Shown in pieces: positions 4,571 to 43,018 of a stretch of 48,346 bases of DNA. The notes below the pieces were generated by a model. That model worked only from the letters and a program-made list of their open reading frames with translations. It was not told where the DNA came from and made no database searches. Both the position numbers and the translations under genes were made by a program. This DNA is from an uncultured Candidatus Saccharibacteria bacterium (GTDB lineage Bacteria; Patescibacteriota; Minisyncoccia; Phycocordibacterales; Zambryskibacteraceae): NCBI GenBank assembly GCA_964355645.1, contig CAYHDI010000004.1, positions 1 through 48,346 on the forward strand, given 5' to 3'. Positions within the stretch are counted from its first letter, which is position 1. Each line of letters starts with the position of its first letter.

Positions 4571-6023
4571 TGATATTGTCTTCAAGTATTTTTTTAAGAA
4601 TCATAGGATTCGCACTCCCCTTCGTCTCTTTCATTCCCTGCCCAACTAAAAACTGCATCGATGCCTCCTTGCCATTTTTGTATTCTTCTACAGCTTTTGG
4701 ATTTTCAGAAATAATTTTCTTTGCAATTTCATTAAGGTGTTCACTATCACTTGATTGAATAAGATTATTTTCTTCAGCTATTGCTTTTGGATCGCCGTCC
4801 TTGATTAACATTATTTTTAGAATGTCTTTAGCCCCGCGACTACCAAGTTCTCCGGTCTTGATCATACTTATAAGTTTGGCAAAATTCTTTGGGTCAACGC
4901 TCAGATTGGACAGATCGGTTAGAAGATAATTTGAAACTAGATTCGCCAGCTCCCTATCCCCCAAAACAGAAACCACTTTCTCAAAATATACCCCTTTCCC
5001 TAAATCTTGGATATAAACTTCTATATCATCATCTTTAATACCAAAATCTTTTTGGTATCGTTCTCGCTTAGCATTTGGAAGTTCTGGGAGCGAGGCTTTG
5101 AGACTTTCGACTTTAAACTCTTCTATTTCGCCTAAAAAAAGTTTGGGTAAATCAGGTTCAGGAAAATATCTGTAGTCGTGTGAATCTTCCTTGGACCTTT
5201 GAGAAAATGTTTTTTCTTCGTTCTCATCCCACCCACGTGTCTCTTGGACGATTTTCTCTCCTTTCTCAAGTAGCTCTATATGTCTCTCCACTTCATATTT
5301 AATAGCCTTCTCTACTGCCTTAAATGAGTTGAGGTTTTTTACTTCAACCTTAGTACCAAGTTTACTCACCCCCACTTCGCCAAGGCTTCGCGGGGCAAGA
5401 GAAATGTTGGCTTCGACTCTCATCTCCCCTTTTTCCATATTAGCTTCACTGGCACCCAAATATTGAAGAAGAAGTTTAAATTCTTTGGCAAATTTCACCG
5501 CCGTTTCTGCATCATGAATCACTGGTTCGGTCACAAGCTCCATGAGGGGCACCCCGGCTCGATTGAAATCTATACGACTTGCTTCCTCTTCATACACCCC
5601 ACCCTTGCCCTCCCCTTGCCAAGGGGAGGGTTGGGAGAGGTGTACTGATTTGGCTGTATCTTCTTCTAAATGAACACGAGTAATCTTGACCCCGGCCAAT
5701 TCCCCACCAGAAACCAAAGGATATTTATATTGACTAATCTGATAACCCTTAGGAATATCCGGATAAAAATAATTCTTCCTATCAAATTCGGTATAATCAG
5801 CAATCTTTCCACCGACAGCCACACCGACTCGAAGGACTTGCCTGACGGCTTCTTTGTTTATCACCGGTAGAGTTCCCGGATACCCCATACAAATCGGACA
5901 AATATTTGTATTTGGTTTGGTTTCATCTGTATCATTTTTTGAATGACAAAACATCTTCGTCTTGGTTCGAAGTTCGGCGTGTATTTCAAGCCCGATGGTT
6001 GGAAGATAGTCCTTGACTGCCAT
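4566..6023 (-). CDS. gatB: Asp/Glu-tRNA amidotransferase subunit B, with two short in-frame repeat-derived insertions
   Basis: IGLEIHAEL, FDRKNYFYPDIPKGYQISQ, HLEED, DFNRAGVPLMELVTEP, KVEVKNLNSF, DYRYFPEPDLP motifs. Confidence 0.97.
   Translation of the reverse strand: MAVKDYLPTIGLEIHAELRTKTKMFCHSKNDTDETKPNTNICPICMGYPGTLPVINKEAVRQVLRVGVAVGGKIADYTEFDRKNYFYPDIPKGYQISQYKYPLVSGGELAGVKITRVHLEEDTAKSVHLSQPSPWQGEGKGGVYEEEASRIDFNRAGVPLMELVTEPVIHDAETAVKFAKEFKLLLQYLGASEANMEKGEMRVEANISLAPRSLGEVGVSKLGTKVEVKNLNSFKAVEKAIKYEVERHIELLEKGEKIVQETRGWDENEEKTFSQRSKEDSHDYRYFPEPDLPKLFLGEIEEFKVESLKASLPELPNAKRERYQKDFGIKDDDIEVYIQDLGKGVYFEKVVSVLGDRELANLVSNYLLTDLSNLSVDPKNFAKLISMIKTGELGSRGAKDILKIMLIKDGDPKAIAEENNLIQSSDSEHLNEIAKKIISENPKAVEEYKNGKEASMQFLVGQGMKETKGSANPMILKKILEDNIK
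5370..5399 (-). repeat. 30-bp imperfect palindromic repeat in frame in gatB (copy 1)
   Basis: CTTGCCCCGCGAAGCCTTGGCGAAGTGGGG; 29/30 identical to 41531-41560. Confidence 0.9.
5596..5640 (-). repeat. BoxC-like palindromic element inserted in frame in gatB
   Basis: CCTCTCCCAACCCTCCCCTT-GGC-AAGGGGAGGG-CAAGGGTGGGGT: 10-bp stem, 3-nt loop; translated as SQPSPWQGEGKGGV. Confidence 0.85.
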
Positions 6024-6103
6024 GTTTGAATCAGTATATCAAAAAAAATAATGTGTATAAACCCCTCTCGTTCTTCTCCAGTTCCTTCCCTGTTTCTTTT
6101 CCA

Positions 6104-6140
6104 TACGCTATAATATTGTGGTCGCAATATATTAACGTAT
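6104..6140 (+). repeat. 37-bp quasi-palindromic direct repeat, copy 1 (contains TATAAT, overlaps start codon)
   Basis: TACGCTATAATATTGTGGTCGCAATATATTAACGTAT; 32/37 identical to 6716-6752. Confidence 0.9.
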
Positions 6141-6708
6141 GGGGAAACTTGAAAAACATAGCCAAGAAAGAGCCCGGAGAGAACATCTTCAAAAGATTGT
6201 ATTAGGAACAATCAAAGTTGCTGGCATATTAAGTGTTGGCCTCTTGGCACCAAGTGTCATTGGTGCCATGGATAAATTGGGTCTATTACCAAAATCCAGA
6301 CAAAGAGAATATATCACCTCTTCTGCAGCCAAGCTTACAAAAAGAGGATTGTTGAAATACATAAACGGACATTATGAACTAACAAAAGACGGTGAAAAAA
6401 TACTACGTCAATGGGAATTGTCCGACTACATAATCCATCGCCCAAAAAAGTGGGACAAAAAATGGCGAGTGGTGATCTTCGATATTCCGGAAAAGAAAAG
6501 AAAAACCAGAGACAAAATTACTATTCTTTTTAGACAAGCTGGATTCCAGCGACTACAAGACAGTGTCTGGGTTTTCCCGTACGATTGTGAGGATATTATT
6601 GGTCTACTAAAAACAGATTTCCATGTTGGAAAGTATCTTCTATACATGATTGTTGAAGAACTTGAGAATGACAAGCAACTGAGAAAAGATTTTAATTTAA
6701 TCCGATAA
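6139..6708 (+). CDS. PaaX-like transcriptional regulator with Cas2-like (ferredoxin-fold) C-terminal domain
   Basis: wHTH-like segment (YITSSAAKLTKRGLLKYINGHYELTKDG) followed by WDKKWRVVIFDIPEKKRKTRD...GFQRLQDSVWV, the PaaX-M/Cas2-like signature. Confidence 0.85.
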   Translation: MGKLEKHSQERARREHLQKIVLGTIKVAGILSVGLLAPSVIGAMDKLGLLPKSRQREYITSSAAKLTKRGLLKYINGHYELTKDGEKILRQWELSDYIIHRPKKWDKKWRVVIFDIPEKKRKTRDKITILFRQAGFQRLQDSVWVFPYDCEDIIGLLKTDFHVGKYLLYMIVEELENDKQLRKDFNLIR

Positions 6709-6715
6709 AACTAGG

Positions 6716-6752
6716 TACGTTATAATATCGCGGTCGCAAATTATTAACGTAT
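6716..6752 (+). repeat. 37-bp quasi-palindromic direct repeat, copy 2
   Basis: TACGTTATAATATCGCGGTCGCAAATTATTAACGTAT, starting 7 bp after the stop codon; arms TACGTTA/TAACGTA. Confidence 0.9.
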
Positions 6753-6791
6753 TAGATGTACAGAGATTTATAGTTGTATAGATGTATAAAT

Positions 6792-7766
6792 TTAATCTTG
6801 AACTTTGTCTGCTGATTGAGTCAAAAAATCTTTGAGTTGTTTAATTGAATCATCATCAATAATAGACACGGCATAAACAGGTTTGTGCAGAGTTTTCAAT
6901 TCCTCAATCTTCATGGCTTTTTCTTCATCAGAAACAAGATCCGTCTTGGTCAAAAGAATGATTTCGGATTTGCTCATGATGTCTTGGTGATAAAGTTCGA
7001 GTTCGTTTTGAACAATTTTGTAGGTAGCTACTGGGTCAACCTCTTCGGCAGAAATACAATGAATCAAACCTTTCGTACGTTTGATATGACGAAGAAATTT
7101 GTGTCCCAAACCTTTGCCGAGTGAAGCTCCTTCAATCAATCCGGGAATATCACCGAGAATCAGACCGTATAAATCTCCGAGATTCGGCTCAAGGGTAGTA
7201 AAAGGAAAAGCTCCAATCTTCGCCTTCGCATTAGTCAGGGTGTTTAACAAACTTGATTTGCCTGCGTTAGGCAAACCGACCAATCCATAGTCCACGACGA
7301 GTTCAAGTTCAATCTGAAAATCTGATTCTTCTCCTTCAACTCCCAAGGTGAATTCACGCGGGCTAATGTTGGTGGATGATTTGAAATGTTCGTTGCCGAG
7401 TCCTCCCCTGCCTCCTGTCAGCAACTTTATTCTCTCACCATCCTCAACAAGTTCGAAAACATGGCCGGTGGTCAGATTTGTAATTCTCGAACCGATAGGA
7501 AATTTGATTTCTCTGTCTTCCCCACCAGAACCGTGCCAAACATTTTTCATCCCATCACCACCAGGGCCCGCCTCGAAAACCTTCACATCTCTGTATGAAG
7601 CAAGAATTCCTAAATCGCGCACGGCCAAAGCGAAGACGTCTCCGCCTTTGCCCCCATTGCCTCCAGACGGACCACCGCGATCTTTCCCCTTCTCATGGAG
7701 CCAGCGTTCAACACCGTCACCTCCCTTGCCCGCTTTCAAATGTAATTTAATTTCGTCTATGAACAT
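6792..7766 (-). CDS. obgE: GTPase ObgE/CgtA (short form)
   Basis: Gly-rich Obg fold, GLPNAGKSS (G1), PFTTLEPNLG (G2), DIPGLIEGA (G3), TKTD (G4). Confidence 0.97.
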   Translation of the reverse strand: MFIDEIKLHLKAGKGGDGVERWLHEKGKDRGGPSGGNGGKGGDVFALAVRDLGILASYRDVKVFEAGPGGDGMKNVWHGSGGEDREIKFPIGSRITNLTTGHVFELVEDGERIKLLTGGRGGLGNEHFKSSTNISPREFTLGVEGEESDFQIELELVVDYGLVGLPNAGKSSLLNTLTNAKAKIGAFPFTTLEPNLGDLYGLILGDIPGLIEGASLGKGLGHKFLRHIKRTKGLIHCISAEEVDPVATYKIVQNELELYHQDIMSKSEIILLTKTDLVSDEEKAMKIEELKTLHKPVYAVSIIDDDSIKQLKDFLTQSADKVQD

Positions 7767-7780
7767 ATATTTGTATTACC

Positions 7781-8653
7781 TTACGCATTTAAAGCGATTT
7801 GAGCAAGTTTAACCGCTCCTTCCTTAGATTGAGCTACCGCTATAAAACGACTGTTGTGACAGAAAGTGGCATCGCTTACTCCAGAAATTTTGGCCATTTC
7901 TTCATCTCTTTTACCCGCCCAAGGTTCTGGGAAAAGTTTTTTCCTTTCAAACCCGTGGAGCAATATGGGCACCGCTTCTACACCCCACTTATCATCGGTT
8001 CTGGGATAAACTACATACAAAGAGTCTTTTATAGGAATCAAAATTTTTTTCCACGGCAAGTATTCTTCTAAAACAATGAGTCTTTTGTCTTCTGTTTGGT
8101 CAATCAAAATTTTCATTTTTTCCAAATCTATCAAAAATATCTCGGCGTTTCTTATTTCTTTCAACAACAAATCTTTGGCCACCAAGACTACTTCCATAAA
8201 GACTTCATGCAAATATTCCTCATTCTTGTAGGTATGATTAACAAAAGCATCAAAATAATCAGTGATGCCATAATCGCTTATATTTTCAAAAAGCGGTTTG
8301 GACAAACTAATCCCATTGTCTAAAGCATCAATGGGCCAAACAAGCCTTTCTTCGATACAATTCGCCACCTCTCTGCTACCGCACAATTTTTCTCCCATTT
8401 CTTTCCAGACTAAACCAAAAGAAGCATAAGGTATTGAGTTATCCCTCGTCCCAGCACCCCCTTCTTGATGATGATCAAATCTTTTCTGAGTCACATCATA
8501 AACCCCACCCACATCAACAACAATATCAGCTGTTTTTATGATAGATTCCTCACGGCTTCTGATGATATTGAGTTCTGGGTAAAGTAAAGAAAAAACTGCC
8601 ACAGCAAAAACATCATCCGCATGAAACTTACCGCTATGCGTTACTATTTTCAT
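7781..8653 (-). CDS. MYG1 family (UPF0160) DHH-like exonuclease
   Basis: THSGKFHADD, VDVGG, FDHHQ, FCHNSRFI motifs; start moved to the ATG at 8653. Confidence 0.92.
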   Translation of the reverse strand: MKIVTHSGKFHADDVFAVAVFSLLYPELNIIRSREESIIKTADIVVDVGGVYDVTQKRFDHHQEGGAGTRDNSIPYASFGLVWKEMGEKLCGSREVANCIEERLVWPIDALDNGISLSKPLFENISDYGITDYFDAFVNHTYKNEEYLHEVFMEVVLVAKDLLLKEIRNAEIFLIDLEKMKILIDQTEDKRLIVLEEYLPWKKILIPIKDSLYVVYPRTDDKWGVEAVPILLHGFERKKLFPEPWAGKRDEEMAKISGVSDATFCHNSRFIAVAQSKEGAVKLAQIALNA

Positions 8654-9170
8654 TGTGTTTATAGGCACAAAGTTTAATGAAAAGGAGATAAGACACAAGG
8701 GTTAAACTCATGAGCGGAATGGTGATGTAGCCGTACTCGATGACATAAATCCTTGAACATTCACCGCCGACGGCAGTACAAGGTAAAAGAGAAATACCGC
8801 TAAAGTTTGAATAAGATTGATAGAGGGAGACGAAAAAAGCCGCGATTGATAGAGGAAGCGCGTAATCAAAGATTCCCCTGTCTTTCTTGATAATAGCAAT
8901 AAGGAAAAGTACAGCCTGTGGATAAAGGAAAATTCTCTGCCACCAACAAAGCTCACACGGCGCAAAACCTAAAACATTTGAATACATTAGACTGCCAACG
9001 ATAGAAGCCGTGGACAAAATGAATCCGAGCCACAGGGCGTATTTGTGAACAAAGTGAATGAAATCATGTCCCCAAGATTTTCTATAAACGAATGCTAGAA
9101 TGCAAAAAATGAAGAAGATGTGACCAAGGAGAGTGGCGAATGAGAGTACGGGTGTGATAAATGAGGACAT
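8634..9170 (-). CDS. dsbB: Disulfide bond formation protein DsbB family
   Basis: Multiple TM helices, PCELCWWQRIFLYP (CxxC) and a second Cys pair PCTAVGGECS; start moved to the ATG at 9170. Confidence 0.88.
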   Translation of the reverse strand: MSSFITPVLSFATLLGHIFFIFCILAFVYRKSWGHDFIHFVHKYALWLGFILSTASIVGSLMYSNVLGFAPCELCWWQRIFLYPQAVLFLIAIIKKDRGIFDYALPLSIAAFFVSLYQSYSNFSGISLLPCTAVGGECSRIYVIEYGYITIPLMSLTLVSYLLFIKLCAYKHNENSNA

Positions 9171-9175
9171 ACAAA

Positions 9176-9550
9176 TTATTGGGGCAACACACAAGAAGTT
9201 TTCTCCGCCAGAGTAGCTAGAGCTACTTCGCCATTAAGAATTGAGCCGTCTTTAAAAATCCAAGTTGGATAGCCAGTAATTTTTTTGTCTGTGCAAATCT
9301 GAGTTTGACCACTTCCATCCGGAGTTGAACATTCAACATAAGGCAAAAATTTCTCAGATGTTCCGAATAACTTTTTCTGTGATTGACAATGTGAACACCA
9401 AAATGCACCATAGAATGTTGCCCCACTATCCTTTATGCACACAGCAAAAGTATCGTATTTCGATGAGGCCACTCTCTTCGGCGTAACAATTAACCAAACA
9501 ACTAAAGCCACGAATATCACGAAAATAAGAACCCAAATGTATTTTTTCAT
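9176..9550 (-). CDS. Membrane-anchored thioredoxin-like (DsbA-like) protein
   Basis: N-terminal TM helix, FYGAFWCSHC, LPYVECS, ITGYPTW (cis-Pro loop); resembles the Trx domain of VKOR-Trx fusions. Confidence 0.85.
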   Translation of the reverse strand: MKKYIWVLIFVIFVALVVWLIVTPKRVASSKYDTFAVCIKDSGATFYGAFWCSHCQSQKKLFGTSEKFLPYVECSTPDGSGQTQICTDKKITGYPTWIFKDGSILNGEVALATLAEKTSCVLPQ

Positions 9551-9577
9551 AGTGGTATTATAACAAATTTTTAATTC

Positions 9578-10000
9578 AATAACTCCCCTAACCCCTCTTA
9601 CCTTAAGAGGGGTATTCTGGCTATAACATTCTCTATATCTTTCAAAACTTCATTATTCCAAAAACGAACAATCCTTATATCTTCTGTTTCTAAATATTCA
9701 CTCCTTTCTTTATCATAAATTCTAGTATCAACTTTTGTGTGTTGGACACCATCAAGCTCTATGGCCAACCTTAATTTTGGACAATAAAAATCCAAAATGT
9801 ACGGCCCAACACCATATTGACGAAGAAACCTGAACCCATTTATTTGTTTCCTAGATAAACGAGACCACAGAACTTTTTCAGCTTCGGTCGAATTATTTCT
9901 TAATTCACGGCGACGGTCTCTTAAATCTCTATTGTTGTATAGAAATTTGGTTTTCATTTTCTTTTCTTACCCCCTTAACGTAAGGGGGTTGGGGGTTATT
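9578..10000. mobile_element. Candidate mini-element: DUF559 nuclease gene between inverted BoxC/REP-like palindromic ends
   Basis: Left end (+) AATAACTCCCCTAACCCCTCTTA-CCT-TAAGAGGGGT (9578-9613); right end (-) AATAACCCCCAACCCCCTTA-CGT-TAAGGGGGT (9969-10000). Mobility is inferred. Confidence 0.6.
9598..9957 (-). CDS. DUF559 (Vsr-like PD-(D/E)XK) endonuclease domain protein
   Basis: RELRNNSTEAEKVLWSRL, FRFLRQY, YILDFYCPKLRLAIELDGVQH, RIVRFWNNEV signatures. Confidence 0.92.
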   Translation of the reverse strand: MKTKFLYNNRDLRDRRRELRNNSTEAEKVLWSRLSRKQINGFRFLRQYGVGPYILDFYCPKLRLAIELDGVQHTKVDTRIYDKERSEYLETEDIRIVRFWNNEVLKDIENVIARIPLLR

Positions 10001-12512: not shown

Positions 12513-12570
12513 AAGACGCTTATTTTACCACATTTTCTCTGTTTTGACCAAAACTTGAGGTCTGCAAAGA

Positions 12571-12603
12571 AAAAACATCCTTCGATAAACTCAGGACGTT
12601 TTT
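12571..12603. terminator. Hairpin after the Lys-rich peptide gene; loop contains a CTTCGACAAGCTCAG-like REP motif
   Basis: AAAAACATCCT-TCGATAAACTC-AGGACGTTTTT, with A and T runs on either side. Confidence 0.6.
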
Positions 12604-12619
12604 TCTTTGAAGACAAAGA

Positions 12620-12697
12620 TTATGCTCGCTTCTTCGAAGCCTTTCGCTTCTTTGCTGCTGGCTTTCTCTTTGCTGCTTTTCGCTTTTTTGCTGCCAT
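12620..12697 (-). CDS. 25-aa Lys/Arg/Ala-rich basic peptide (protamine/H1-like)
   Basis: ATG at 12697 gives MAAKKRKAAKRKPAAKKRKASKKRA; it has its own upstream region and a downstream terminator-like hairpin. Confidence 0.75.
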   Translation of the reverse strand: MAAKKRKAAKRKPAAKKRKASKKRA

Positions 12698-12804
12698 TGT
12701 ATTTGTGCGTCTTGATCTGAGACGCAAATTATTGTTAACGTCTATCACGAAAATGTTTTTCGCAAAACATTTTCGCGTGTGACCTGTATATATTATCTTA
12801 TGCA

Positions 12805-12847
12805 TCATCCACACATACAAGGATTTTATTTAGAAATGTGTGGATAA
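12805..12847. promoter_or_regulatory. Two DnaA-box-like 9-mers upstream of the basic peptide gene
   Basis: TCATCCACA (12805-12813, one mismatch) and TGTGGATAA (12839-12847, perfect), in opposite orientations. Confidence 0.4.
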
Positions 12848-13586: not shown

Positions 13587-13588
13587 AA

Positions 13589-32193: not shown

Positions 32194-33284
32194 AGAATTT
32201 TCTCTGCTCTTTTTTCCCAAGTATAGTTTTGAACATTCTTTAAAGCTTCCTTGGTAATTTCTTTGGTGTGAACTTGATCTTCAGAAGCCTGGTGAATGCC
32301 TCTAATAATGCCGGTAACATCAGCCGGCTTCACCAAAATGGCATTGTTCTCGTTTAATACTTCTCGAATTGAAGACATGTCTGAGGCCACAATTGGTCTC
32401 CCGCTCGCCATATATTCAAAAACTTTTATCGGTGAAGTATAAAGTTCTGATTCTACTGAAATTGGAACATTGGGCAAAAGAAGGACATCCGCACAGGCGA
32501 GATATTTGGGTATTTCTCTTTGTTCTTTTTGGCCAAGAAACATAGCATTATCTAAATGCTCGTATTCTTTAATTTTCCTATATCGAACAAGGTCTTTGTC
32601 TGTTCCACCAACAAATACAAACTTGTAACGAGAATCGCCTTTAGTTTCTTTCGCTGCTTCTACAACCACATCAACTCCCTTCCATGAATATAAGTGCCCA
32701 GTATACATAATAATTATTTGATCTTCAGGGAGATTAAGTCTTCTTCTTAATTCTTTGGTATTTTCTCCAGCTCGAAACATATCTAGATCAACTCCATTCG
32801 GGACTGAATGAGTATTTCTGAATCCTCTTTCTCTATATTCTGTTTCGGTGCCTTTTGAATTGCAGACAATATAGTCTACCCTTCTTAATAAATACTGATG
32901 CAGGCATCGTTTGTTTTCTGGCCACAAATGTGACTCATAAACCGTTTTGTACCCCCGCACACTCATAAGCCAAGCGATCTCAACACTCCGAGTATAAACA
33001 ATTGAATCTTTCGGTATTTTAGCAAAGATAAGTTTTAAGAAAAAAAAGAGACTCTGGATTCTAAAGTTCAATGCATCAAAACTATTAAGCTTCCTGATGG
33101 TGAAATTTCTACGTACCGAATAAAAATCAAAAGGGTTTTCTTTGATAAGGGTCTCCCTACCTGGGACCAAAAGTTCTACCACAAATCCTGCTTCAGCAAA
33201 AGCTTCGCAGGATTTCACAATTTGAATACCGTGCGCTTTCTCAGTAGGAATTCTAATATTGGCTATATAAGTAATATCTTTCAT
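32175..33284 (-). CDS. GT4 family glycosyltransferase
   Basis: PNGVD, YTGHLYSWKG, SPIKVFEYMASGRPIV, YTWEKRA. Confidence 0.9.
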   Translation of the reverse strand: MKDITYIANIRIPTEKAHGIQIVKSCEAFAEAGFVVELLVPGRETLIKENPFDFYSVRRNFTIRKLNSFDALNFRIQSLFFFLKLIFAKIPKDSIVYTRSVEIAWLMSVRGYKTVYESHLWPENKRCLHQYLLRRVDYIVCNSKGTETEYRERGFRNTHSVPNGVDLDMFRAGENTKELRRRLNLPEDQIIIMYTGHLYSWKGVDVVVEAAKETKGDSRYKFVFVGGTDKDLVRYRKIKEYEHLDNAMFLGQKEQREIPKYLACADVLLLPNVPISVESELYTSPIKVFEYMASGRPIVASDMSSIREVLNENNAILVKPADVTGIIRGIHQASEDQVHTKEITKEALKNVQNYTWEKRAEKILQFLNK

Positions 33285-35736: not shown

Positions 35737-35742
35737 ATGGGC

Positions 35743-36822
35743 TTATACTATCTTTTCTGGGCCAGTTTTAGAAGCACCCTGTTCCATGTAGACACATATG
35801 TTTTTTATCAAATTCTTGAAATCATATTCCTTAATTGCGTGATCTCGAAGGTTTTTCATAACAATTTCTTTATCTTCTTCGGCTAAAAAGGTTCGGATCT
35901 TAATAGCGAGATCTGAGGGGTTTTTGTACTCGAACAGGAACTTGTCGCTATATTCGGCGAAGACAGGCTTTAGGGCCAAATTTGAGGCAAATACGGGGCA
36001 ATAAGCCATTATAGACTCTATAACCACCTTGTCCCAACCCCCCTTCGGACTCAGGTTAACCGAGAGGTTTGCCCCTGCGTAAACCCCTGAAATCTGTTCA
36101 TTTTTAACAATTCCCTTAAATACAACAACATTCTCTAAATATTTCTCTTTAACCAATTTTTTCAGTTTTTTCACGTAGATTTTGTCTTCATTCGTTAGCC
36201 CTTCTCCATAAATCTCTATGGAAAGATTTTGTATTTTTTTATTTAAAATTTCTCCTGCAAGGATTAAGGTTTCTAAATCTTTTATTGGGGTTATGCGTCC
36301 CACATGAACTATTTTTGTTTTGCTAGTATCAGAATTAAAAACATTATTTATAAATTTATTGGAGTCCACTCCATGTCCAAGATATATGACCTTTTTACTT
36401 TTTATAGTAAAACTCTCGAGTGATGAGGTAAATATATTATCTACAAACTTTTCAGCTAGCCACAAACTAAAGCTTGATTGTCTGTGCACATACCAAAGTA
36501 CAATCTTTTTGTTCCAAATTTTCCAAAACAAACTTCCGAGTAACACATAAATTTGATTCATATGTACAAATACAGAATCATATTCTTTTCTATATTTCCA
36601 AATAAGTTTATAGAAATTTAAAACGTATTCAAGTTTTGATGCGCCAGATTCCTTTCCTAAAGAAAAAACCTTAATATTCTCTGGCAATTCTACTATCCCT
36701 TTTTCTAAACAAATCACCATCACCGATTCACAATTTTTGGAAAACTCTTTAATCCATTCGTGGAAAAAACCCAGGATAGGATCAGCTTTGTCCACTTTTT
36801 GAGTAATTATAATAAGTCTCAT
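35743..36822 (-). CDS. GT4 family glycosyltransferase
   Basis: GHGVD, HVGRITPIKD, GGWDKVVIESI. Confidence 0.87.
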   Translation of the reverse strand: MRLIIITQKVDKADPILGFFHEWIKEFSKNCESVMVICLEKGIVELPENIKVFSLGKESGASKLEYVLNFYKLIWKYRKEYDSVFVHMNQIYVLLGSLFWKIWNKKIVLWYVHRQSSFSLWLAEKFVDNIFTSSLESFTIKSKKVIYLGHGVDSNKFINNVFNSDTSKTKIVHVGRITPIKDLETLILAGEILNKKIQNLSIEIYGEGLTNEDKIYVKKLKKLVKEKYLENVVVFKGIVKNEQISGVYAGANLSVNLSPKGGWDKVVIESIMAYCPVFASNLALKPVFAEYSDKFLFEYKNPSDLAIKIRTFLAEEDKEIVMKNLRDHAIKEYDFKNLIKNICVYMEQGASKTGPEKIV

Positions 36823-37976
36823 TAATTTACATGTGAAGCCGTTTCTCTCCAGGTTTTGAGCAGATGTTCCAGATACTCTTCTTTGGTAATCAAAATCGAA
36901 TCCAATTTTCGCTTAATATTCATACGCAAACTTTCTCTCATAGAATTGTTTTCGACCAAATCATAAACCGCTTTGAACATATATTCGACATCTCCGGGTG
37001 GACAAATGTATACATCATGACCATTTTCTAAATCATTCGCAATTCCCACATTGGTAGTGACGATGGGCAAACCAGAAATTCCCGCTTCAACGAGCGATAG
37101 CCCGTAGCCTTCAAAATTTGAAGTCTGAATGAAAAGATTTGCTGTTTTGTAGTATGAACCTAAATCTTCTTGCCACCCTACAAAGACCACATTATTTTCT
37201 AACTTTAGACTTTTGACTAATAACTTGAGACTACTCTCTTCCGGCCCAGAACCAACAATCACAAGACCGGCATTCGGGAAAAATGTCACCAGCTTTTCCA
37301 AAACCTCCAGAGCCATGGGTAAATTTTTCTCTACAGATAAACGCGAGACTGCCAGCAAAATGAAGTGCCAACCAAATCTCGCATGTAGATCAAAAGAAAC
37401 TTTTTCATTTTCAATTCGATTTTTGTCTACATAAATAGGTAAAACCGAAATGTTTTGATGTTTAATAGAAAATTCCTTGGAAATTTTGTCCCCGAGTGAT
37501 GGGCTGACAACTCGTACATTGTCAGCATATTTAATAACCTTGCGAGCAATAATTTTTCTTATTTCGTTTAAAAACCCAGAAAAATATGGGGAAAAAGGAT
37601 CTGTATGGAGTTGAACCTCAAGAGGAATACGCCATTTATTTTTGACTATAAGCCCCGCTCGTCCACACTCAAATGGATCTTGAGTAGTGATAATCGATTT
37701 TCCTCTGATGAATTTTTTATCGAAAATAATCTTTTTACCCAAGCGTGCAGCACCGCTTGAACGAAACCATTTGAAACTTGAATTTGTGGGATAAACCCAA
37801 ATATTTTTATCTAATGTCGTATCTTTAAGTTTATGAGATGAATCAGAAAGCAAAACTATATGAAGCTCTTCGACCAACCCCCCATATTCCTTCATTCTCT
37901 CCGAAACTGCGCTCCCCGCAGTGAGAATTTGTCTATCGCTACTAATCATTAAAATCCTAAGATCTTTTGATTCCAT
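36822..37976 (-). CDS. GT4 family glycosyltransferase
   Basis: VSRLSVEKN, VGSGPEE, SNFEGYGLSLVEAG. Confidence 0.88.
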   Translation of the reverse strand: MESKDLRILMISSDRQILTAGSAVSERMKEYGGLVEELHIVLLSDSSHKLKDTTLDKNIWVYPTNSSFKWFRSSGAARLGKKIIFDKKFIRGKSIITTQDPFECGRAGLIVKNKWRIPLEVQLHTDPFSPYFSGFLNEIRKIIARKVIKYADNVRVVSPSLGDKISKEFSIKHQNISVLPIYVDKNRIENEKVSFDLHARFGWHFILLAVSRLSVEKNLPMALEVLEKLVTFFPNAGLVIVGSGPEESSLKLLVKSLKLENNVVFVGWQEDLGSYYKTANLFIQTSNFEGYGLSLVEAGISGLPIVTTNVGIANDLENGHDVYICPPGDVEYMFKAVYDLVENNSMRESLRMNIKRKLDSILITKEEYLEHLLKTWRETASHVN

Positions 37977-37997
37977 TTAGCTATTATATCAGAACAA

Positions 37998-39140
37998 TTA
38001 AGAATTTTTGAGAACATTAGTAATCTCTCGAAGCATCCTCTCTTTTCCAAAGAAATCCAACTTCTCTTTTCCTTTCTCTACGTACTTATCCGCAATTTCC
38101 TTATTCTTTAGAATATTGATAATAGAATTTTTAATTGTTTCTTTGTCATTATACTTAAACAATTCACCGTTTAAACCACTGTTTATTACTTCTATATTTC
38201 CTCCCGCATCACTGCAAAGAATCGGAACTTCTAGGTATAAAACTTCTAAAAGTTGATGAGACAAACCTTCGTATGAAGTATTGAGCACAAACAAATCAGA
38301 AGCTTTTATATATTCGAACAAATCATTCTGTTTCATTTTACCAGTCAAAACCACGAGATCTTCTGTCCCATTTTTCTTCACACAATTAGCTAAATAATCT
38401 TTGTCTGGCCCATCCCCAACAATATAAAGCTTCACTCCTTTTACCTTTTTAGAAATATCTTTCATCAAAGAAATCAAGGTGTCGAAACCTTTCCATGACA
38501 CCAATCTGCCGACAGAAATAATCATCGGAAAATTAATATTGAATTTCTTTCTCATTTCATCCCTCGTGCCATGAAAATCTGGAGCATGAAAGGCGTTGTA
38601 GATTACTTGAATCTTGTCTCCATTAATCCCCCAATTTATTACTATTTTCTTTAGATAATTTGAAGGTACGATTATTTTATCTGCATGATTAGTCACAAAA
38701 AATTCTACTTTTTTCAAAACACGAACTAAGAATGGATACTTGTCATACTCTGTGGAAAATTGATCTAGGAGGTCTGTCACTCCACTTCGCTGTAATCCTT
38801 GTTCCCAAGCATAATCTCCAACAATTTTTAAATAAAACTTTTTACATGTAAACTTGGCTACCACTAAAGCCGATAGACCAACAGAAACCGGATCTTGGGC
38901 ATAAATTATTCTGCAACCAAAACTTGAAAACAAAACTTTAAAGAAATATAGAACATGTCTAATAATCTTCGGATATTTGATAACCCAACCGAAGCTCTGA
39001 ACCTTTATACCAATTCCACGTGAAGGCAATTTCTCTAAAAGCAATTTTGAATAAGTCGCTGGTCCACCGATTTGAGGAGGGAAAATACCAGTACAAATTA
39101 AAACTTTTTTATTAGAATTTGCCATAGACATTTTCTCCAT
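37998..39140 (-). CDS. GT4 family glycosyltransferase
   Basis: GIFPPQIGGPATY, SVGRLVSWKG, NTSYEGLSHQLLE; true start may be a downstream Met. Confidence 0.87.
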   Translation of the reverse strand: MEKMSMANSNKKVLICTGIFPPQIGGPATYSKLLLEKLPSRGIGIKVQSFGWVIKYPKIIRHVLYFFKVLFSSFGCRIIYAQDPVSVGLSALVVAKFTCKKFYLKIVGDYAWEQGLQRSGVTDLLDQFSTEYDKYPFLVRVLKKVEFFVTNHADKIIVPSNYLKKIVINWGINGDKIQVIYNAFHAPDFHGTRDEMRKKFNINFPMIISVGRLVSWKGFDTLISLMKDISKKVKGVKLYIVGDGPDKDYLANCVKKNGTEDLVVLTGKMKQNDLFEYIKASDLFVLNTSYEGLSHQLLEVLYLEVPILCSDAGGNIEVINSGLNGELFKYNDKETIKNSIINILKNKEIADKYVEKGKEKLDFFGKERMLREITNVLKNS

Positions 39141-40059
39141 ACCAGTCTATTTCCTTTTTTAATCCTATTCTGAAATCAGTTTCTGGATTATATCCAAGAA
39201 GTTTACGTGCTTTATCTATCCTAGCACCTGTTTCAAGTTGGTCTCCCGGACGTTTTGGTATTATTTTTATTTTAGCTTTTTTGCCCATTAAATCCTCAAC
39301 AATCTTTAGGCCTCCTCCTGTGGTATTTGTTTTGTCATTTCCTAAATTAAAAGTTTCTCCAATTATTTCTGTATATTTATTCAAAGCTTTAATACAGCCG
39401 TCAATAATATCACCTACATAACTATAACTTCGAATATGCTTATCGCTCCCTTCAAACATGGTAATTTCTGAATCTTCGTATAATGCCTTTATAAGTTTAT
39501 AAAAAAACTTTTCTGGTCTCTCTCGTTCTCCGTACACGGAAAAGAAACGTAAATTTACAACTGGTAAACCTTTGTCGCGAAAATATGACAAGGCTAGCTG
39601 TTCGGCCGCAAGTTTAGTCACGCCATAATTAGATGTTGGGGCGGGGGCGTCCGTCTCTGGTCCACTTGCATGTGCCCCATAAACAGAGGATGTCGAGGCA
39701 TTAAAAAATGCTTTCAGATTTTTATTATCCTTAATTGATTCTAATAGCTTTTGTGTTGCAACAATATTATTATTTAAATAATCGTCAAAACTTGTCGATG
39801 AAGATATTCCTGGTTGTGCAGCCAAGTGAAATATAACTTCTGCATCTTTAACAATATCTGCAATATCATCAGAAACTAAATTTTTATAAAACATCTTTAC
39901 CCCTTGATCCTCAAGCTGTTTACACGTTAATTGCTTAATGCGAACATCATAGTAAGGAGTGAGAGTATCTATACCTGCAACTTCATGACCTTCTTTTATT
40001 AATCTCTCTGCGAGATGAGAGCCTATGGCACCAGCGGCACCTGTAACTATAATTTTCAT
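39112..40059 (-). CDS. NAD-dependent epimerase/dehydratase (UDP-glucuronate 4-epimerase-like SDR)
   Basis: TGAAGAIGS, HLAAQPG, ASTSSVYG, SNYGVTK (YxxxK), RFFSVYG. Confidence 0.88.
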   Translation of the reverse strand: MKIIVTGAAGAIGSHLAERLIKEGHEVAGIDTLTPYYDVRIKQLTCKQLEDQGVKMFYKNLVSDDIADIVKDAEVIFHLAAQPGISSSTSFDDYLNNNIVATQKLLESIKDNKNLKAFFNASTSSVYGAHASGPETDAPAPTSNYGVTKLAAEQLALSYFRDKGLPVVNLRFFSVYGERERPEKFFYKLIKALYEDSEITMFEGSDKHIRSYSYVGDIIDGCIKALNKYTEIIGETFNLGNDKTNTTGGGLKIVEDLMGKKAKIKIIPKRPGDQLETGARIDKARKLLGYNPETDFRIGLKKEIDWYGENVYGKF

Positions 40060-40097
40060 ATTAAGCTATTTTAACACAAATTTTATGATAGAAAAAA

Positions 40098-41216
40098 TTA
40101 GAAAAAAGGCTCAAACACTCGTTCTTTCATATTTTTAGCCACCAAATCCCATTCATATTTCTCCTTCACCACGCGACTCGCATTCTGAACTAATTTTATT
40201 TTTAATTCTGGATTATTTATAAGTTTCTTTACCTGTTCGGCAATGCTTTCTGGGTTGTTTACTTTACAAAATAACCCCGTCTCTCCGTCTTTTAGAAAAT
40301 CGACAACACCTCCAACTGGTGTGGTTATCACTGACAATCCTGCGGCCATGGCCTCTATAAAAGAATTCCCCATTCCTTCTGATAATGAAGGCCTAATGAA
40401 AATATCTGCGTCATGTAAATATTTTGGAATATCATCATATTTAATAAATCCTAAAAACTTCACTCTGTCTTCAAGATTTAAATTTTTAACTTTTTGCTTC
40501 AATGCTGATTCTAAAAGACCAATACCGACAATATGCAACTCGATATTTTCTGGTAAATACTTTAAAGCCTCAATAATATCCCCCACTCCATTCTTCGTCA
40601 CTAAACGAGAGGTGGTGATAAGGACAACTTTATCTTTGTGCAACATTCGATGTTGCACGTTTTCAAATTTTTTGACATTTACGCCATTTGGAATAACTTC
40701 AACTCTGCCTTTGTATCCAAGCCTCTGGGCCCGCTCCGCCAAGTAATGGCTGATAACCGTGAGAATATCTGTGTACCTCAGGGCCAACCTCCAAGATAAA
40801 TCAATTAATCCTAGCCATCTAAAACGCAAATGACTTTCGGAATCTCCCTCTTGCAAAGTAAGAACAATCGGTATTTTTTTCTGAAACCAGTTAGCAATGT
40901 AGGCCCCTCCAGAAGCGAAGGTGGCCATAACGCACCAGAACAAATCATAATGGTTTTTCTTATTTAAATTCAAAGCGAAAATTGCTCCCCAAAATGGCAA
41001 AAGAAGTTTATCAAGAAGCGAGAGACCAAACCCAAGTCTGTACACGTTTATATTTCCTATCTTTTCAATTTTTGGTAAATCTTTTTCAAATTTGGCTGTG
41101 ATTAAATCAAATTGGATATCAGGAAGTCTGTCTGTAATTTCTTTTATGGCAATTTCAGCCCCACCAATATATGGCAAATAGGCTGTGGAAAATATAAGGA
41201 TACGCTTGGATATCAT
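40098..41216 (-). CDS. GT4 family glycosyltransferase
   Basis: GGAE, PNGV, TSRLVTKNG, RPSLSEGMGNSFIEAMAAG; start set to ATG 41216. Confidence 0.88.
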   Translation of the reverse strand: MISKRILIFSTAYLPYIGGAEIAIKEITDRLPDIQFDLITAKFEKDLPKIEKIGNINVYRLGFGLSLLDKLLLPFWGAIFALNLNKKNHYDLFWCVMATFASGGAYIANWFQKKIPIVLTLQEGDSESHLRFRWLGLIDLSWRLALRYTDILTVISHYLAERAQRLGYKGRVEVIPNGVNVKKFENVQHRMLHKDKVVLITTSRLVTKNGVGDIIEALKYLPENIELHIVGIGLLESALKQKVKNLNLEDRVKFLGFIKYDDIPKYLHDADIFIRPSLSEGMGNSFIEAMAAGLSVITTPVGGVVDFLKDGETGLFCKVNNPESIAEQVKKLINNPELKIKLVQNASRVVKEKYEWDLVAKNMKERVFEPFF

Positions 41217-41242
41217 AAGATAATCCAATTATATTATGATTC

Positions 41243-43018
41243 TTAGTCAGTTTCAAGTAAGGCCTTTAATTCTTCAGCTGATGGTTCTTTTTTGTTTTTT
41301 TGCTCCGGTTTATGCTCAGTTTTCGGAGGTAATGAAGGATTGGGGGTTTTGACCATCGCCTTTGGCGAGGTCCCGCCACCGGCGGTGACTATATTCGAAA
41401 GAGCACTTCTTAAATCTGAAACATTTTGTTGACTCGGCTGGCGTTGATTGTTGTTTGGTTTCTTTAAATCCTCTAAAGAAATTGCTTTCAAGGGTTTGAA
41501 GTCGTCCCCGGGTACAAGCGGGGGTAGTTCCTTGCCCCGCGAAGCCTCGGCGAAGTGGGGCTTCTGTCGAACTGGTTCGGGTTTTTTTCTAATATCAATA
41601 GGTTGAGGTGCATGAAATTCTGGTCGAGATCTTTCTCTCTCTTTCTCTCTGGTTGGATACGGCCTCGGTTCAGAATTATATTGTGGTTTATATTCTGTTT
41701 GGCTTTCGACTTTTGGCTTTTCACTTTTTTCTATTTTGTGCCATTCGACAATCTCCTTTTCAACCACAGCTTTTGGACGCGAATAAATCTGGCGAGTATT
41801 CTCGATGATTTCCTTCACATATGTATTTTCCGGTAATTTAATCGGGGGAAGAGTGGTGGCCGAGAAAGGTGGAGAAGTCACACTATCAATCATTAATTTC
41901 AAATAAATTTGTCGTAGACCGAGGTTAACCAAATCTTCCTGAGTGAAAGTCGGCAGAAATTCCTTCTCCAAAACTTCAGCATCGTAGGCTCCAACTCGAA
42001 AGACAATCATGGTACCAACGTTCCCGAAAACTGCATCTCGAACTTCTTCTTCCATTTGTTCGATGTACTGATGTGCGATAGTTAAGTTGAGTTTGTATTT
42101 GCGTGCTTCAGAAAGAATGTCGGCGAAAGATTTGTCCGCGAAAGATTGAAATTCGTCTACATATAAATAAAAGTTTGGAAGCTTCGCGAGAGTTGTCGCG
42201 TTCTCGTCTGCTCGGCTCATGGCGGCAAGATAAATTTTGGTAATAAGCATTGAACCGAGGAGCCGAGCATTCCCCTCTCCTACTCGACCTTTGGACAAGT
42301 TCACAATCAAAATCTTCTTCTCGTCCATAATCTTGCGAAGATCGAAGGACGACTTGCTCTGTCCAATAATATTTCGAATCAATGGATTACCCGCGAACTG
42401 TCCAATTTTGTTCTGAATAGCTGGCGTGGCTTCCTGCGCATACTTGTCCGTATACTTCGCATATTCATCGACCCAAAAACTTTTGACTGAAATGTCTGTG
42501 ACATTGTCTACCACCTGTTTCCTAAATTCTTTGTCCGCGTACATTCTATTCACGGCGAGGAGTGTGGCACCCGGGAATTCAAGAAGTGCAAGCAAAGTGT
42601 TCTGAAGAATATAGGCCATACGCGCGCTCCAGGCATCCTCCCAAATCTTCTCAAAGATAGACATAAGACCGTTCACCACCAAGTGTCTTTTGTCTGCGCC
42701 CACATCTTCCATAATGTTGAAAGAAACCGGATAATCCATATCAAACGGCGCGAAATAAACCACATCTTTGATTCTATCCTCGGGAACATAATCCAAAAGC
42801 TTCTCGGCCGTACCTCCGTGTGGGTCGATGAAAACCACTCCTTCGCCATTCTGAATATCTTGAATGGCCATGTTCTCAAGAAGCGTGGACTTGCCCATGC
42901 CGGTCTTCCCTATCACATAAACATGTTTAGAGCGGTCGCTTGATTTTATACCGAAAGGGGTAAGCTTATTCCTCGCATCCGTTTGAGCAAAATATGTAAT
43001 CCTGTCAATATTCGCCAT
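41243..43018 (-). CDS. VirD4/TraG-like (HerA/FtsK superfamily) coupling ATPase with low-complexity tail
   Basis: IGKTGMGKS Walker A, FIDPHG, YLYVDEFQ Walker B, EARKY, AHQYIEQ. Start set to ATG 43018 (TATAAT 7 nt upstream), not 43177. Confidence 0.9.
   Translation of the reverse strand: MANIDRITYFAQTDARNKLTPFGIKSSDRSKHVYVIGKTGMGKSTLLENMAIQDIQNGEGVVFIDPHGGTAEKLLDYVPEDRIKDVVYFAPFDMDYPVSFNIMEDVGADKRHLVVNGLMSIFEKIWEDAWSARMAYILQNTLLALLEFPGATLLAVNRMYADKEFRKQVVDNVTDISVKSFWVDEYAKYTDKYAQEATPAIQNKIGQFAGNPLIRNIIGQSKSSFDLRKIMDEKKILIVNLSKGRVGEGNARLLGSMLITKIYLAAMSRADENATTLAKLPNFYLYVDEFQSFADKSFADILSEARKYKLNLTIAHQYIEQMEEEVRDAVFGNVGTMIVFRVGAYDAEVLEKEFLPTFTQEDLVNLGLRQIYLKLMIDSVTSPPFSATTLPPIKLPENTYVKEIIENTRQIYSRPKAVVEKEIVEWHKIEKSEKPKVESQTEYKPQYNSEPRPYPTREKERERSRPEFHAPQPIDIRKKPEPVRQKPHFAEASRGKELPPLVPGDDFKPLKAISLEDLKKPNNNQRQPSQQNVSDLRSALSNIVTAGGGTSPKAMVKTPNPSLPPKTEHKPEQKNKKEPSAEELKALLETD
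41531..41560 (+). repeat. 30-bp imperfect palindromic repeat (copy 2), in frame in the VirD4-like tail
   Basis: CTTGCCCCGCGAAGCCTCGGCGAAGTGGGG; 29/30 identical to the gatB copy. Confidence 0.9.

Follow-up and report, generated by a model that had tools for sequence, protein, structure and literature searches.

Introduction

The described systems that come closest to the sequence reported here are the REP and REPIN sequences with their RAYT (TnpA-REP) Y1 transposases, known from Proteobacteria (Bertels & Rainey, PMC3116915, PMC3337134; PMC4690160), and the Rickettsia palindromic elements (RPEs), palindromes that lie in frame in conserved genes (PMC10969869, PMC1779305), measure roughly 100–150 bp and are confined to Rickettsia (PMC10969869). 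Like RPEs, the sequence discussed here is an in-frame palindrome in conserved open reading frames, adds a peptide that is tolerated, is read in several frames and has no known transposase. Unlike RPEs, it is only 30 nt long, consists of one small hairpin, is found in Patescibacteria and recurs at identical insertion sites.

The window analyzed here is a 48,346-nucleotide stretch of DNA from an uncultured Candidatus Saccharibacteria bacterium, and two short stretches within it are probably copies of a 30-nt, single-hairpin, non-autonomous mobile DNA family that is widespread in Patescibacteria (CPR), which are ultra-small bacteria. The best reading of this family is that it is REP-like, can persist within genes and depends on a mobilising activity supplied in trans. 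The literature that was searched contains no description of the element, its sequence or its peptides, and no paper that connects REP/RAYT with CPR; the element is apparently undescribed so far.

Two copies of the element in the window

A preliminary description of this DNA reported one palindromic repeat in two unrelated genes, and its account of the pair was confirmed. The minus strand at positions 5370–5399 reads CTTGCCCCGCGAAGCCTTGGCGAAGTGGGG, the plus strand at 41531–41560 reads CTTGCCCCGCGAAGCCTCGGCGAAGTGGGG, and the two are 29/30 identical, with a single T/C mismatch in the apical loop. The copies are in opposite orientation, though both host genes are on the minus strand.

Copy 1 (5370–5399, minus strand; 51.2 bits and an E value of 1e-9 with a covariance model of the family) comprises a CTTG leader (5399–5396) and a 26-nt hairpin (5395–5370), and lies in gatB (4566–6023, minus strand), which encodes a 485-aa product with Pfam matches to GatB_N (8e-105) and GatB_Yqey (1.5e-33). 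Its folding (F) strand is the gatB sense strand, and its peptide, LAPRSLGEVG, follows ...VEANIS in a variable GatB loop, at a position where aligned solved GatB structures have a gap. Copy 2 (41531–41560, plus strand; 47.8 bits) has its CTTG leader at 41531–41534 and its hairpin at 41535–41560, with TC rather than TT in the apical loop. It lies in the gene for a VirD4/TraD-like type IV coupling ATPase (41243–43177, minus strand; matches to T4SS-DNA_transf, TrwB_AAD_bind and TraG-D_C), the start of which is most likely at 43018, for a product of 591 aa, the length of the recorded product. In this gene the F strand is the antisense strand, and the disordered C-terminal tail of the protein contains the peptide PHFAEASRGK; both peptides are those given in the preliminary description.

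When up to three mismatches were allowed, no third copy was found anywhere in the window, and the covariance model detected no further convincing copy there. A weak third match to the model at 33186–33216 was dismissed as an ordinary glycosyltransferase helix, and matches on BoxC-like hairpins (5604–5630, 9588–9612 and 9966–9988) have only a leader-plus-C/G-stem outline in common with the element. In an Rfam scan of the window, the 16S rRNA and one tRNA passed, with nothing at either element.

The short length of the unit is all that speaks for chance resemblance, convergent low-complexity coding or an assembly or adapter artefact, and the probability of such an origin is negligible. With three mismatches allowed, 100 dinucleotide-preserving shuffles did not yield even one match to the 30-mer (none is expected by chance), while there are hundreds of copies in assemblies from many groups and methods, the copies lie in frame in intact conserved genes, and the gatB sequence of the window is present, whole or in part, in runs from five further studies.

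Architecture of the 30-nt unit

The unit is exactly 30 nt long and consists of a 4-nt leader followed by a 26-nt hairpin, CCCCGC-GAA-GCC-TT-GGC-GAA-GTGGGG; the core, in letters, is CGCCAARGGCTTCG. The leader is mostly CTTG, with the variants CTCG, CCTG, TTTA and TTTG, and in the hairpin a symmetric GAA/GAA internal loop separates an outer stem of 6 bp, one of them a conserved G.T wobble, from an inner stem of 3 bp that is closed by a TT tip. Copies form discrete sub-families, with CCCCGC, CCCCTC or CCCGCC stems and CTTG or TTTA leaders. Part of the near-invariance of the core reflects the scans themselves, which demanded a near-exact match to it.

The evidence for the hairpin comes from covariation. 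Among loop matches listed without any filter, 11 copies with a non-canonical outer stem are paired at 6/6 positions (chance 0.003 each), as in CCCGCC/GGCGGG, CCCTAC/GTAGGG, CTCGTC/GACGGG, CACCGT/ATGGTG and CCCTTC/GAAGGG, and the inner stem alternates among GCC/GGC, GCT/AGC and GTT/AAC. The loop is fixed across copies while both stems co-vary, and the pairing signal collapses in slid-partner controls. In standard nearest-neighbour folding the energy of the hairpin is no better than that of shuffles (z about 0), so it is the covariation that carries the case for the structure. Of the palindrome with CCCCGC/GTGGGG arms that had been proposed, the arms are real, as 6 bp with one G.T wobble, and the folding energies are unremarkable.

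Only one strand would fold into a good hairpin, presumably because of the G.T wobble and the purine–purine internal loop. Since the stems co-vary, the loop is fixed and one strand folds well, recognition is probably of a folded single strand. Stop codons are absent from all frames of the unit on both strands; with a length that is a multiple of three, an insertion would thus add ten residues and would be expected to persist where it lands in a tolerant loop.

Filled and empty insertion sites

Empty sites in relatives, which the preliminary description had proposed to compare, were found for both window copies. The closest GatB orthologues lack copy 1, with a length difference of exactly 30 nt between ATTTCT and GTN. 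Copy 2 is missing from a 91%-identical orthologue (L125), where the difference is exactly 30 nt or 10 aa, and also from the syntenic sister genome (L126), of which 37 kb of syntenic sequence (L119/L120/L126) contain no copy of the element. On these alignments, both window copies would be gains, or precise losses in relatives, after the split from the nearest sampled relatives.

Four filled/empty pairs, at two gatB sites (A and B), the VirD4 tail and a DNA ligase gene, each differ by 30 nt, and none of the four has a target-site duplication or has lost target bases. Two unambiguous pairs (gatB sites B and A) set the inserted block as CTTG...GGGG. The verified insertion points follow TCT, TCA, TTC and TTG, and the left flank preference is weak (a last base G in 49%; TTTG or CTTG in 15/120). 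One 30-nt copy is nested within the loop of another (L085/L111). These clean insertions and the nested copy bear out the earlier proposal that the unit invades coding sequence. That the unit moves, as the term micro-mobile family in the preliminary description implies, is inferred from presence/absence patterns at orthologous sites.

Metagenome contigs that align to 41531–41560/65 only, with sequence that diverges on both sides, illustrate how such inserts break assemblies at repeats. Metagenome assembler contigs contained many other copies of the element, but the same strain was not represented by an empty-site allele.

The element is found at the identical nucleotide in non-sister gatB genes and in non-sister DNA ligase genes. 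The gatB carriers at one site are not monophyletic (AU tests, p = 3e-5 and 9e-64), and 7–10 changes are needed on the ligase tree for 12 carriers. Non-sister carriers at gatB site A share a rarer core variant plus an adjacent substitution, and those at site B share a 9-nt loop deletion. The core has diverged far less than its flanks: the inserted 8 aa have 95% pairwise identity versus 68–71% for the flanks, and the core DNA is identical where flanking coding DNA is 55–75% identical. Short-patch recombination as a source of the shared insertion alleles was considered and is not supported, as flank identity is not raised beside the element.

Identical insertion alleles in non-sister genes are what might be expected if the sequence were favoured by the DNA-uptake or recombination machinery of competent CPR cells and spread by homologous allele replacement, like an uptake signal. 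The presence of the sequence in many lineages of the same groundwater communities and the failure to find a transposase also agree with such a drive. It is very unlikely all the same, as biased uptake does not explain exact 30-nt insertions at new sites, one of them nested, and stem covariation points to a folded strand rather than a duplex word. In addition, a density of 2 copies in 48 kb is far under that of known uptake signals, divergence of the flanks begins immediately outside the element and leaves no visible conversion tract, and RecA-type exchange should be very inefficient at the 60–70% identity of these flanks.

Distribution and gene context

At least 118 loci were found in one-genome-per-species contigs, and the CCCCTC sub-family by itself accounts for at least 120 loci in metagenomes. 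Thus, the pair in the window is not an isolated case of two copies with no orthologues that lack them; copies number in the hundreds, and empty sites were found. The hosts of the listed copies are almost all Patescibacteria, from several classes, and their labels cover Paceibacteria-type, Microgenomatia-type and Saccharimonadia groups; a collection of viral contigs yielded 0 matches. Extra copies within the same loci have 0–5 mismatches each, which constitutes a decay spectrum. With few exceptions, namely the nested insertion (L085/L111), one copy in tandem with a more diverged one (L068) and two loci in which a diverged partner may be present (L131/L159), copies are singletons and not inverted doublets.

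The count of intragenic and intergenic copies that had been proposed as a check placed 96/119 and 83/98 copies of two samples (about 81–85%) inside ORFs of at least 120 aa. Besides the two genes in the window, the host genes include an ATP-dependent DNA ligase, a second gatB loop, a PolA-like gene and many more. All six frame/orientation combinations are used among about 240 copies, which yields six different peptides and supports the earlier conclusion that the unit is conserved as nucleic acid and not as protein.

Orientation relative to protein genes is biased about 78:22 in both samples (74:21 and 65:18; 8-kb loci), such that in ~78% of the copies in protein genes the weakly folding strand is the mRNA strand. 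Near tRNA genes, the element is on the tRNA strand in 9/11 element–tRNA pairs within 110 nt (7/9 distinct copies). Four copies (L020, L025, L131 and L159) precede the 5′ end of a tRNA by 0–8 nt and share its strand, versus ~0.06 expected in a comparison made post hoc, and in two of the four the last G of the element is the first base of the tRNA. DnaA boxes were found near 5/240 copies versus ~1% of random positions, which is not significant.

The contrast in orientation between mRNAs and tRNAs would be compatible with a signal that serves tRNA precursors and is detrimental in mRNAs. It therefore bears on the proposal that the hairpin is a site for a conserved host factor (an RNase, or a nucleoid, replication or repair protein) and is kept by selection, with the intragenic copies either by-products or themselves used. 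A fixed loop, co-varying stems and a core that is more conserved than its enzyme-coding surroundings also argue for a functional site. Yet carriers are few in each homologue set (GatB 4/120, VirD4 1/120, ligase 12/117), and this rare, patchy presence means that the element is dispensable wherever it is present. Low density (2 in 48 kb), an origin by block insertion rather than point mutation and the lack of an Rfam family match further make a host function of this kind unlikely.

The tRNA-adjacent copies are also relevant to a model in which each genome has a single conserved template that serves as the source of its copies, and no copy is made from another. The template could be a short RNA, for example the tRNA 5′ leader that RNase P cuts off, and a reverse transcriptase or a different templated polymerase would write it into targets that are nicked or single-stranded; where the last G of the element is the first base of the tRNA, RNase P would release an RNA that ends exactly at the 3′ border of the unit. 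This model could account for a core that hardly varies between copies, sites or classes and has diverged less than its flanks, and the sub-families, with their different stems and leaders, resemble different masters. However, neither a template gene nor a dedicated reverse transcriptase is linked to the element, and no mapped transcript start coincides with the 5′ border of the unit. The tRNA-adjacent cases are four in number and picked post hoc, and could be plain insertions into scarce permissive non-coding spots. Templated writing is judged distinctly improbable.

Search for a mobilising enzyme

As the preliminary description noted, the window contains no evident cognate enzyme, and none was found beside about 240 copies elsewhere (~1.6 Mb of surrounding DNA). 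The search combined a regular expression for the HUH...Y motif, Pfam analysis of 148 neighbouring ORFs and tblastn with RAYT and DUF559 queries, and it revealed no recurrent neighbour; no family among the 148 ORFs has more than 3 members. A nuclease or HUH gene flanked by the element, which had been suggested as a check, did not appear, and a Y1/RAYT gene bracketed by the element occurs at 0 of about 240 copies. Four RAYT-like genes are present in the loci (L043, L110, L128 and L194), each bracketed by its own, different hairpin. No DUF559 homologue was found by tblastn in 238 loci, and the ends of the DUF559 gene in the window (9598–9957) differ from the 30-nt element. Xer-like recombinase genes near 3 intergenic copies, and ruvC near 4 copies, 2 of which are directly at its stop codon, were picked out post hoc and are unconvincing candidates.

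Proposed mode of movement and significance

In the REP-like reading that is preferred here, the 30-nt block is inserted exactly, without target-site duplication or loss of target bases, and lies mostly within genes. The mover would most likely be an enzyme of the HUH or Y1 kind that acts in trans as a single-strand nuclease/ligase specific for hairpins, and this putative enzyme would cut immediately before the leader on its 5′ side and immediately after the foot of the stem on its 3′ side. Several observations count against this reading. The classical REPtron layout predicts that 5–20% of copies flank an enzyme gene, whereas 0 of about 240 do; one core is found across classes of a very deep phylum, unlike lineage-specific REPs; and a core that is better conserved than its flanks is not predicted for a purely selfish, decaying element.

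It is possible, though not probable, that there is instead a phylum-wide ‘hairpin-writing’ process without a dedicated element-linked transposase, which would use a master (possibly tRNA 5′-leader RNA) or a housekeeping single-strand enzyme and insert site-selectively. Selectivity at the nucleotide level would then explain repeated hits, in separate lineages, on one particular loop of an essential gene, and the core would stay identical while the surrounding gene diverges. If this is true, no discrete mobile unit smaller than the element would be known, and the process would represent a new route to peptide insertions.

As a REP-like family, the element would rank among the smallest discrete mobile DNA units known, with 30 nt, a single hairpin and no target duplication. 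It lies mainly inside essential genes, in organisms with almost no intergenic DNA, and this location would provide a steady supply of 10-residue loop insertions (GatB, DNA ligase, PolA-like and type IV coupling proteins). A core that is near letter-identical over deep CPR lineages, together with identical positions in non-sister genes, goes beyond current REP/RAYT and MITE models and points to a probably widespread putative enzyme or templating system. The inserts also inflate apparent protein divergence and can mislead CPR phylogenies and annotation.

Comparison with known systems

Within this genome, the element differs in sequence and architecture from the ends of the BoxC-like, DUF559 cassettes, and it brackets no DUF559 gene. 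Unlike a classical MITE, which has terminal inverted repeats and a target-site duplication, it has no duplication at any verified site. It resembles the uptake sequences of Pasteurellaceae (USS) and Neisseria (DUS), which are short, found in related taxa, often intragenic, read in several frames and without a transposase, and of which recombination can spread the alleles. Those sequences originate through point mutation, occur about once per kb and are recognised as words in duplex DNA, whereas the element is rare and block-inserted and has stems that co-vary.

Like IS200/IS605-family elements, their miniature derivatives (PATEs) and IS91-type HUH elements, which are recognised through sub-terminal hairpins on one strand, the element produces no target-site duplication and has exact boundaries beside a hairpin. 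Precise excision, which is possible in principle for IS200/IS605-type elements, would explain patchy presence at one site. IS91 is described as inserting beside CTTG or GTTC tetranucleotides; here, the nested copy follows CTTG and the VirD4 copy follows GTTC. Those elements have two different ends and measure at least 100 bp, whereas the whole unit here is one 26-nt hairpin plus 4 nt, and its left-flank preference is weak compared with the insertion of IS200/IS605-type elements 3′ of a fixed tetra- or pentanucleotide.

REPs are extragenic, whereas 81–85% of the copies of the element are inside genes and translated; REPINs are inverted doublets, whereas these copies are singletons; the leader is YTTG in place of GTAG; no RAYT gene in the surveyed loci is bracketed by the hairpin of the element; and REPs are lineage-specific, whereas this core is common to classes across a phylum. 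Like REP/REPIN sequences, the element is a short (20–40 nt) imperfect palindrome behind a conserved 5′ tetranucleotide, is dispersed in many copies (at least 238 loci here) that range from intact to decayed, lacks coding capacity, and is structure-dependent and strand-asymmetric, and the presumed substrate in both cases is a folded single strand.

A 30-nt element inserted precisely into unrelated genes

The element occurs twice in the window, in unrelated genes and on opposite strands. Copy 1 (5370-5399, minus) reads CTTGCCCCGCGAAGCCTTGGCGAAGTGGGG and lies in gatB (4566-6023, minus), where it is translated as LAPRSLGEVG, while copy 2 (41531-41560, plus) differs from it by one T>C change and gives PHFAEASRGK in the tail of a VirD4/TraD-like coupling ATPase (41243-43177, minus). 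The near-identical pair 36 kb apart and the two peptides reported in the preliminary description are therefore borne out, the latter by translation. The copies form the longest inverted repeat in the window, and a search allowing up to 3 mismatches found only these 2 across the 48 kb, with 0 matches in 100 shuffled sequences.

The ten-residue GatB insert after VEANIS (gatB site B) is missing from 16 of the 17 closest homologues aligned, the exception being P0010, and among 120 homologues it is common only to the lineage of proteins P0010 and P0011. At the DNA level the empty site reads ATTTCT/GTTAGT and the window reads ATTTCT[CTTG...GGGG]GTGAGT, with borders that cannot be shifted because the adjoining bases differ from the end bases of the element. 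The tail of the VirD4-like gene has empty counterparts in an orthologue of 91% identity (L125) and in the sister genome, which is syntenic here (L126); both read ...AAG/GAACTA..., to which the window adds a 30-nt block, so that the protein alignment sets PEPQIKKELPP against PEPVRQK[PHFAEASRGK]ELPP. Two further lineages (P0009 and P0020) carry the element in a second GatB loop (site A), and a filled/empty pair of loci there, L122/L123, is unambiguous (AGTCA[30 nt]TGATA). In addition, one 30-nt element is nested within the loop of another copy (L085/L111). Together, the filled/empty pairs and the nested copy define a unit of 30 nt: the 4-nt leader CTTG followed by a hairpin of 26 nt. Insertion involves neither target duplication nor loss of target bases, and these exact differences from orthologues lacking the element uphold the proposal that it invades coding sequence.

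Both GatB sites coincide with alignment gaps in solved GatB structures, and the VirD4-like site lies in a low-complexity tail. The GatB loop flanked by HLEEDTAKS.H and DFNRAG (window 5596-5640) is an insertion hot spot. In the window it holds a separate 14-aa GC-hairpin insert, in P0009 and P0020 the 30-nt element, in P0004, P0005 and P0010 a PSTTLETG-type insert, and in P0008 a 25-aa insert; in the closest orthologue, P0003, it has none. A GatB homologue (P0089, 609 aa) contains a PF13366 (PD-(D/E)XK-type) domain and a DNA ligase homologue (P0334, 924 aa) contains intein and LAGLIDADG domains, so genes that host the element also host larger selfish inserts.

Groundwater metagenome contigs from the same studies align to 41531-41560/65 alone and diverge on either side, giving a depth of 95-314 assembler contigs on the element versus ~8 or less on its flanks. 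Contigs assembled from related samples start or end at the element (window 41489-41533), indicating that this 30-nt repeat fragments metagenome assemblies.

Size and range of the family

A scan with the pattern CCCCGCGAAGCCNNGGCGAAGYGGGG, which covered one genome per species and required a near-exact core, found at least 118 element loci with unrelated flanks, so the family extends well past the two window copies; it has empty orthologous sites as well. Searching metagenomes for just the CCCCTC core variant, again as a near-exact match, gave at least 120 loci at no fewer than 98 distinct sites. Among the matches listed, the 4 bases preceding the core are CTTG in 41 of 120, others being CTCG, CCTG, TTTA and TTTG; the base immediately 5' of the core is a purine in every copy, and upstream of the leader there is just a weak preference for G and for T-rich sequence.

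Taxon labels among the matches listed include Woese-, Levy-, Gottesman-, Davies-, Roizman-, Ames-, Nomura-, Staskawicz-, Nealson-, Harrison-, Kaiser-, Lipton-, Colwell-, Andersen- and Uhrbacteria, and Saccharibacteria. Another 21 loci among these matches are labelled Gammaproteobacteria or Pseudomonadales (L003, L007, L011, L013-L017, L025, L031, L039, L049, L053, L057, L076, L087, L094, L097, L098, L101 and L117). These labels look wrong, because all 21 come from a single third-party (TPA) MAG series, have 36-46% G+C, and match contigs labelled as Patescibacteria (CPR) in gene order and proteins. A perfectly paired GCGGGG variant is found on two contigs of 63-67% G+C, labelled Planctomycetaceae (L009 3856-3881, within a larger inverted repeat, GCGGCGT...ACGCCGC) and Caulobacteraceae (L044 3975-4000), which may represent the family outside CPR or mis-binning. 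A viral contig collection contained 0 matches, and the literature searched held no paper with the element sequence or its peptides and none connecting REP repeats or their RAYT (Y1_Tnp) transposases with CPR.

Reading frames and hairpin structure

Most copies are intragenic: among the matches listed, 96 of 119 in a first sample (the other 23 being intergenic) and 83 of 98 in a second, metagenomic sample lie within ORFs of at least 120 aa. The element has no stop codon in any of six frames, and all six frame/orientation combinations are used (PTSPRLRGA, PHFAKASRG, PLRQGFAGQ, PRSLGEVG, PREALAKWG and PAKPWRSG), in agreement with the view that it is conserved as DNA or RNA rather than protein. Orientation is biased 74:21 (p = 4e-8) and 65:18 (p = 2e-7) in the two samples among the matches listed, with the gene sense strand mostly CCCCACTTCGCC..., the poorly folding strand; the frame ranking is near-identical between samples, with a different order of R0 and R2, two frames of the strand opposite the folding strand.

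Nearest-neighbour folding of the element is unremarkable, so sequence variation was examined for structure. When all occurrences of the 14-nt loop module were listed, pairing disregarded, 11 copies with non-canonical outer stems were fully paired (CCCGCC/GGCGGG, CCCTAC/GTAGGG, CCCTGC/GTAGGG, CTCGTC/GACGGG, CACCGT/ATGGTG and CCCTTC/GAAGGG, among others), and the remaining matches, with 0-4 pairs, look like chance. The inner 3-bp stem covaries as well (GCC/GGC, GCT/AGC, GTT/AAC). A 24-row alignment has double changes in 6 of 9 pairs, and controls with slid partners collapse; the unfiltered list is the fairer evidence, because the rows of the alignment had been chosen for their pairing. Which strand folds follows from the conserved G.T wobble and the internal GAA/GAA loop, a possible site of sheared G.A pairs, since both turn into mismatches (A.C and pyrimidine) on the opposite strand.

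Gain, loss and reuse of sites

The syntenic 37 kb of the sister genome contains 0 element copies; therefore both window copies post-date the split or were lost in the sister. Carriers at one site are non-sister lineages: a single clade is rejected by the AU test for the site B carriers (the window plus P0010/P0011, p = 3e-5) and for the site A carriers (P0009 plus P0020, p = 9e-64). In the ATP-dependent DNA ligase of Curtiss- and Levybacteria, 12 of 117 homologues carry the element in one shared position and orientation, and the tree needs 10 changes, at least 7 of them forced by well-supported branches. At this site the leader is of two types, CTTG and TTTA. The flanks are 55-75% identical up to the element borders and the 26-nt core is identical, partly by ascertainment; in an unbiased protein sample the 8 inserted residues are 95% identical pairwise versus 68-71% for the adjoining ten residues on each side. 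Decay is seen in 3 of the 12 carriers (PTLPRLRG, PTSPRLLG and one indel form).

Such patchy occupancy may reflect repeated precise loss, re-insertion at hot spots, or very short conversion tracts. Conversion would fit the rarer core variant and adjacent substitution that site A carriers have in common and the 9-nt loop deletion common to site B carriers, but no raised flank identity suggestive of recombination was seen.

Association with tRNA genes

Four copies lie 0-8 nt upstream of the 5' end of a tRNA, on the tRNA's strand, with ~0.06 expected (L020 7633-7658, L025 1859-1884, L131 7436-7461 and L159 2373-2398; tRNA-Met, -Thr, -Tyr and -Lys); in L020 and L025 the last G of the element is the first base of the tRNA. 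Of 11 cases in which an element and a tRNA lie within 110 nt of each other, 9 have the element on the tRNA's strand (7 of the 9 distinct copies), the reverse of the bias in protein genes. These tRNA-proximal copies and their strand preference are compatible with a reading in which the hairpin would be a leader or RNA-processing element or descend from one, and the association may bear on its mechanism.

In L062 (2045-2227) a tRNA-Leu lies between two family members in inverted orientation. In the tRNA spacers of L131 (7405-7435) and L159 (2342-2372) a diverged hairpin, ATCCTCC TTC GCT GA AGC TTC GGAAGGAT, sits just 5' of the element in opposite orientation, and the two could be an inverted doublet of family members.

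Search for a mobilizing enzyme

No mobilizing enzyme was found in the window or among the loci around copies. The DUF559 gene of the window has hairpin ends that differ from the element, consistent with the earlier statement that no cognate enzyme is evident in the window, and DUF559 homologues are absent from the 238 loci. A nuclease or HUH transposase gene flanked by this repeat, which the preliminary description proposed to look for, was likewise not found beside copies in those loci, and no family among 148 ORFs adjoining copies has more than 3 members. RAYT-like genes occur on four CPR contigs (L043 5413-6120, L128 230-975, L110 1-275 and L194 620-1370), each flanked by its own perfect hairpin unrelated to the element, such as CCACTTGGAGGCTAAGCCTCCAAGTGG (L043), TTGTCCAACCTGCCAGGTTGACCAA (L128) and AACCCCAGGGGTT (L194). 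With no element-flanked RAYT among these loci, they do not fit the classical REPtron layout. The L043 gene also contains its own hairpin in frame within the coding sequence.

The explanation ranked first is that a trans-acting, hairpin-specific single-strand nuclease/ligase would move the element, because the borders are exact beside a strand-specific hairpin, duplication is absent, precise loss is possible and a nested insertion follows CTTG.

In a post hoc inspection, ruvC was noted near the element in L080 (352-865), L053 (1880-2424), L016 and L031; in L080 and L053 the element begins 11-13 nt past the stop codon of ruvC and is oriented oppositely in the two loci. Of 240 copies, 5 have perfect DnaA boxes (TTATCCACA) no more than 300 nt away (L089 5729-5850, L080 866-874, L031 4340-4360, L194 430-580 and L033), some of these boxes being grouped as at a replication origin; this association was rejected as not significant, since ~1% of random positions in these loci are equally close to such boxes.

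Comparison with known systems

In a REPtron the RAYT is bracketed by its own REP, whereas the RAYT-like genes here are bracketed by hairpins other than the element. The 30-nt element resembles HUH-type elements in insertion but may not share all of their defining features. It departs from defining features of Rickettsia palindromic elements, which it resembles in lifestyle, and of REPs, although these offer the closest likeness in how the element works.
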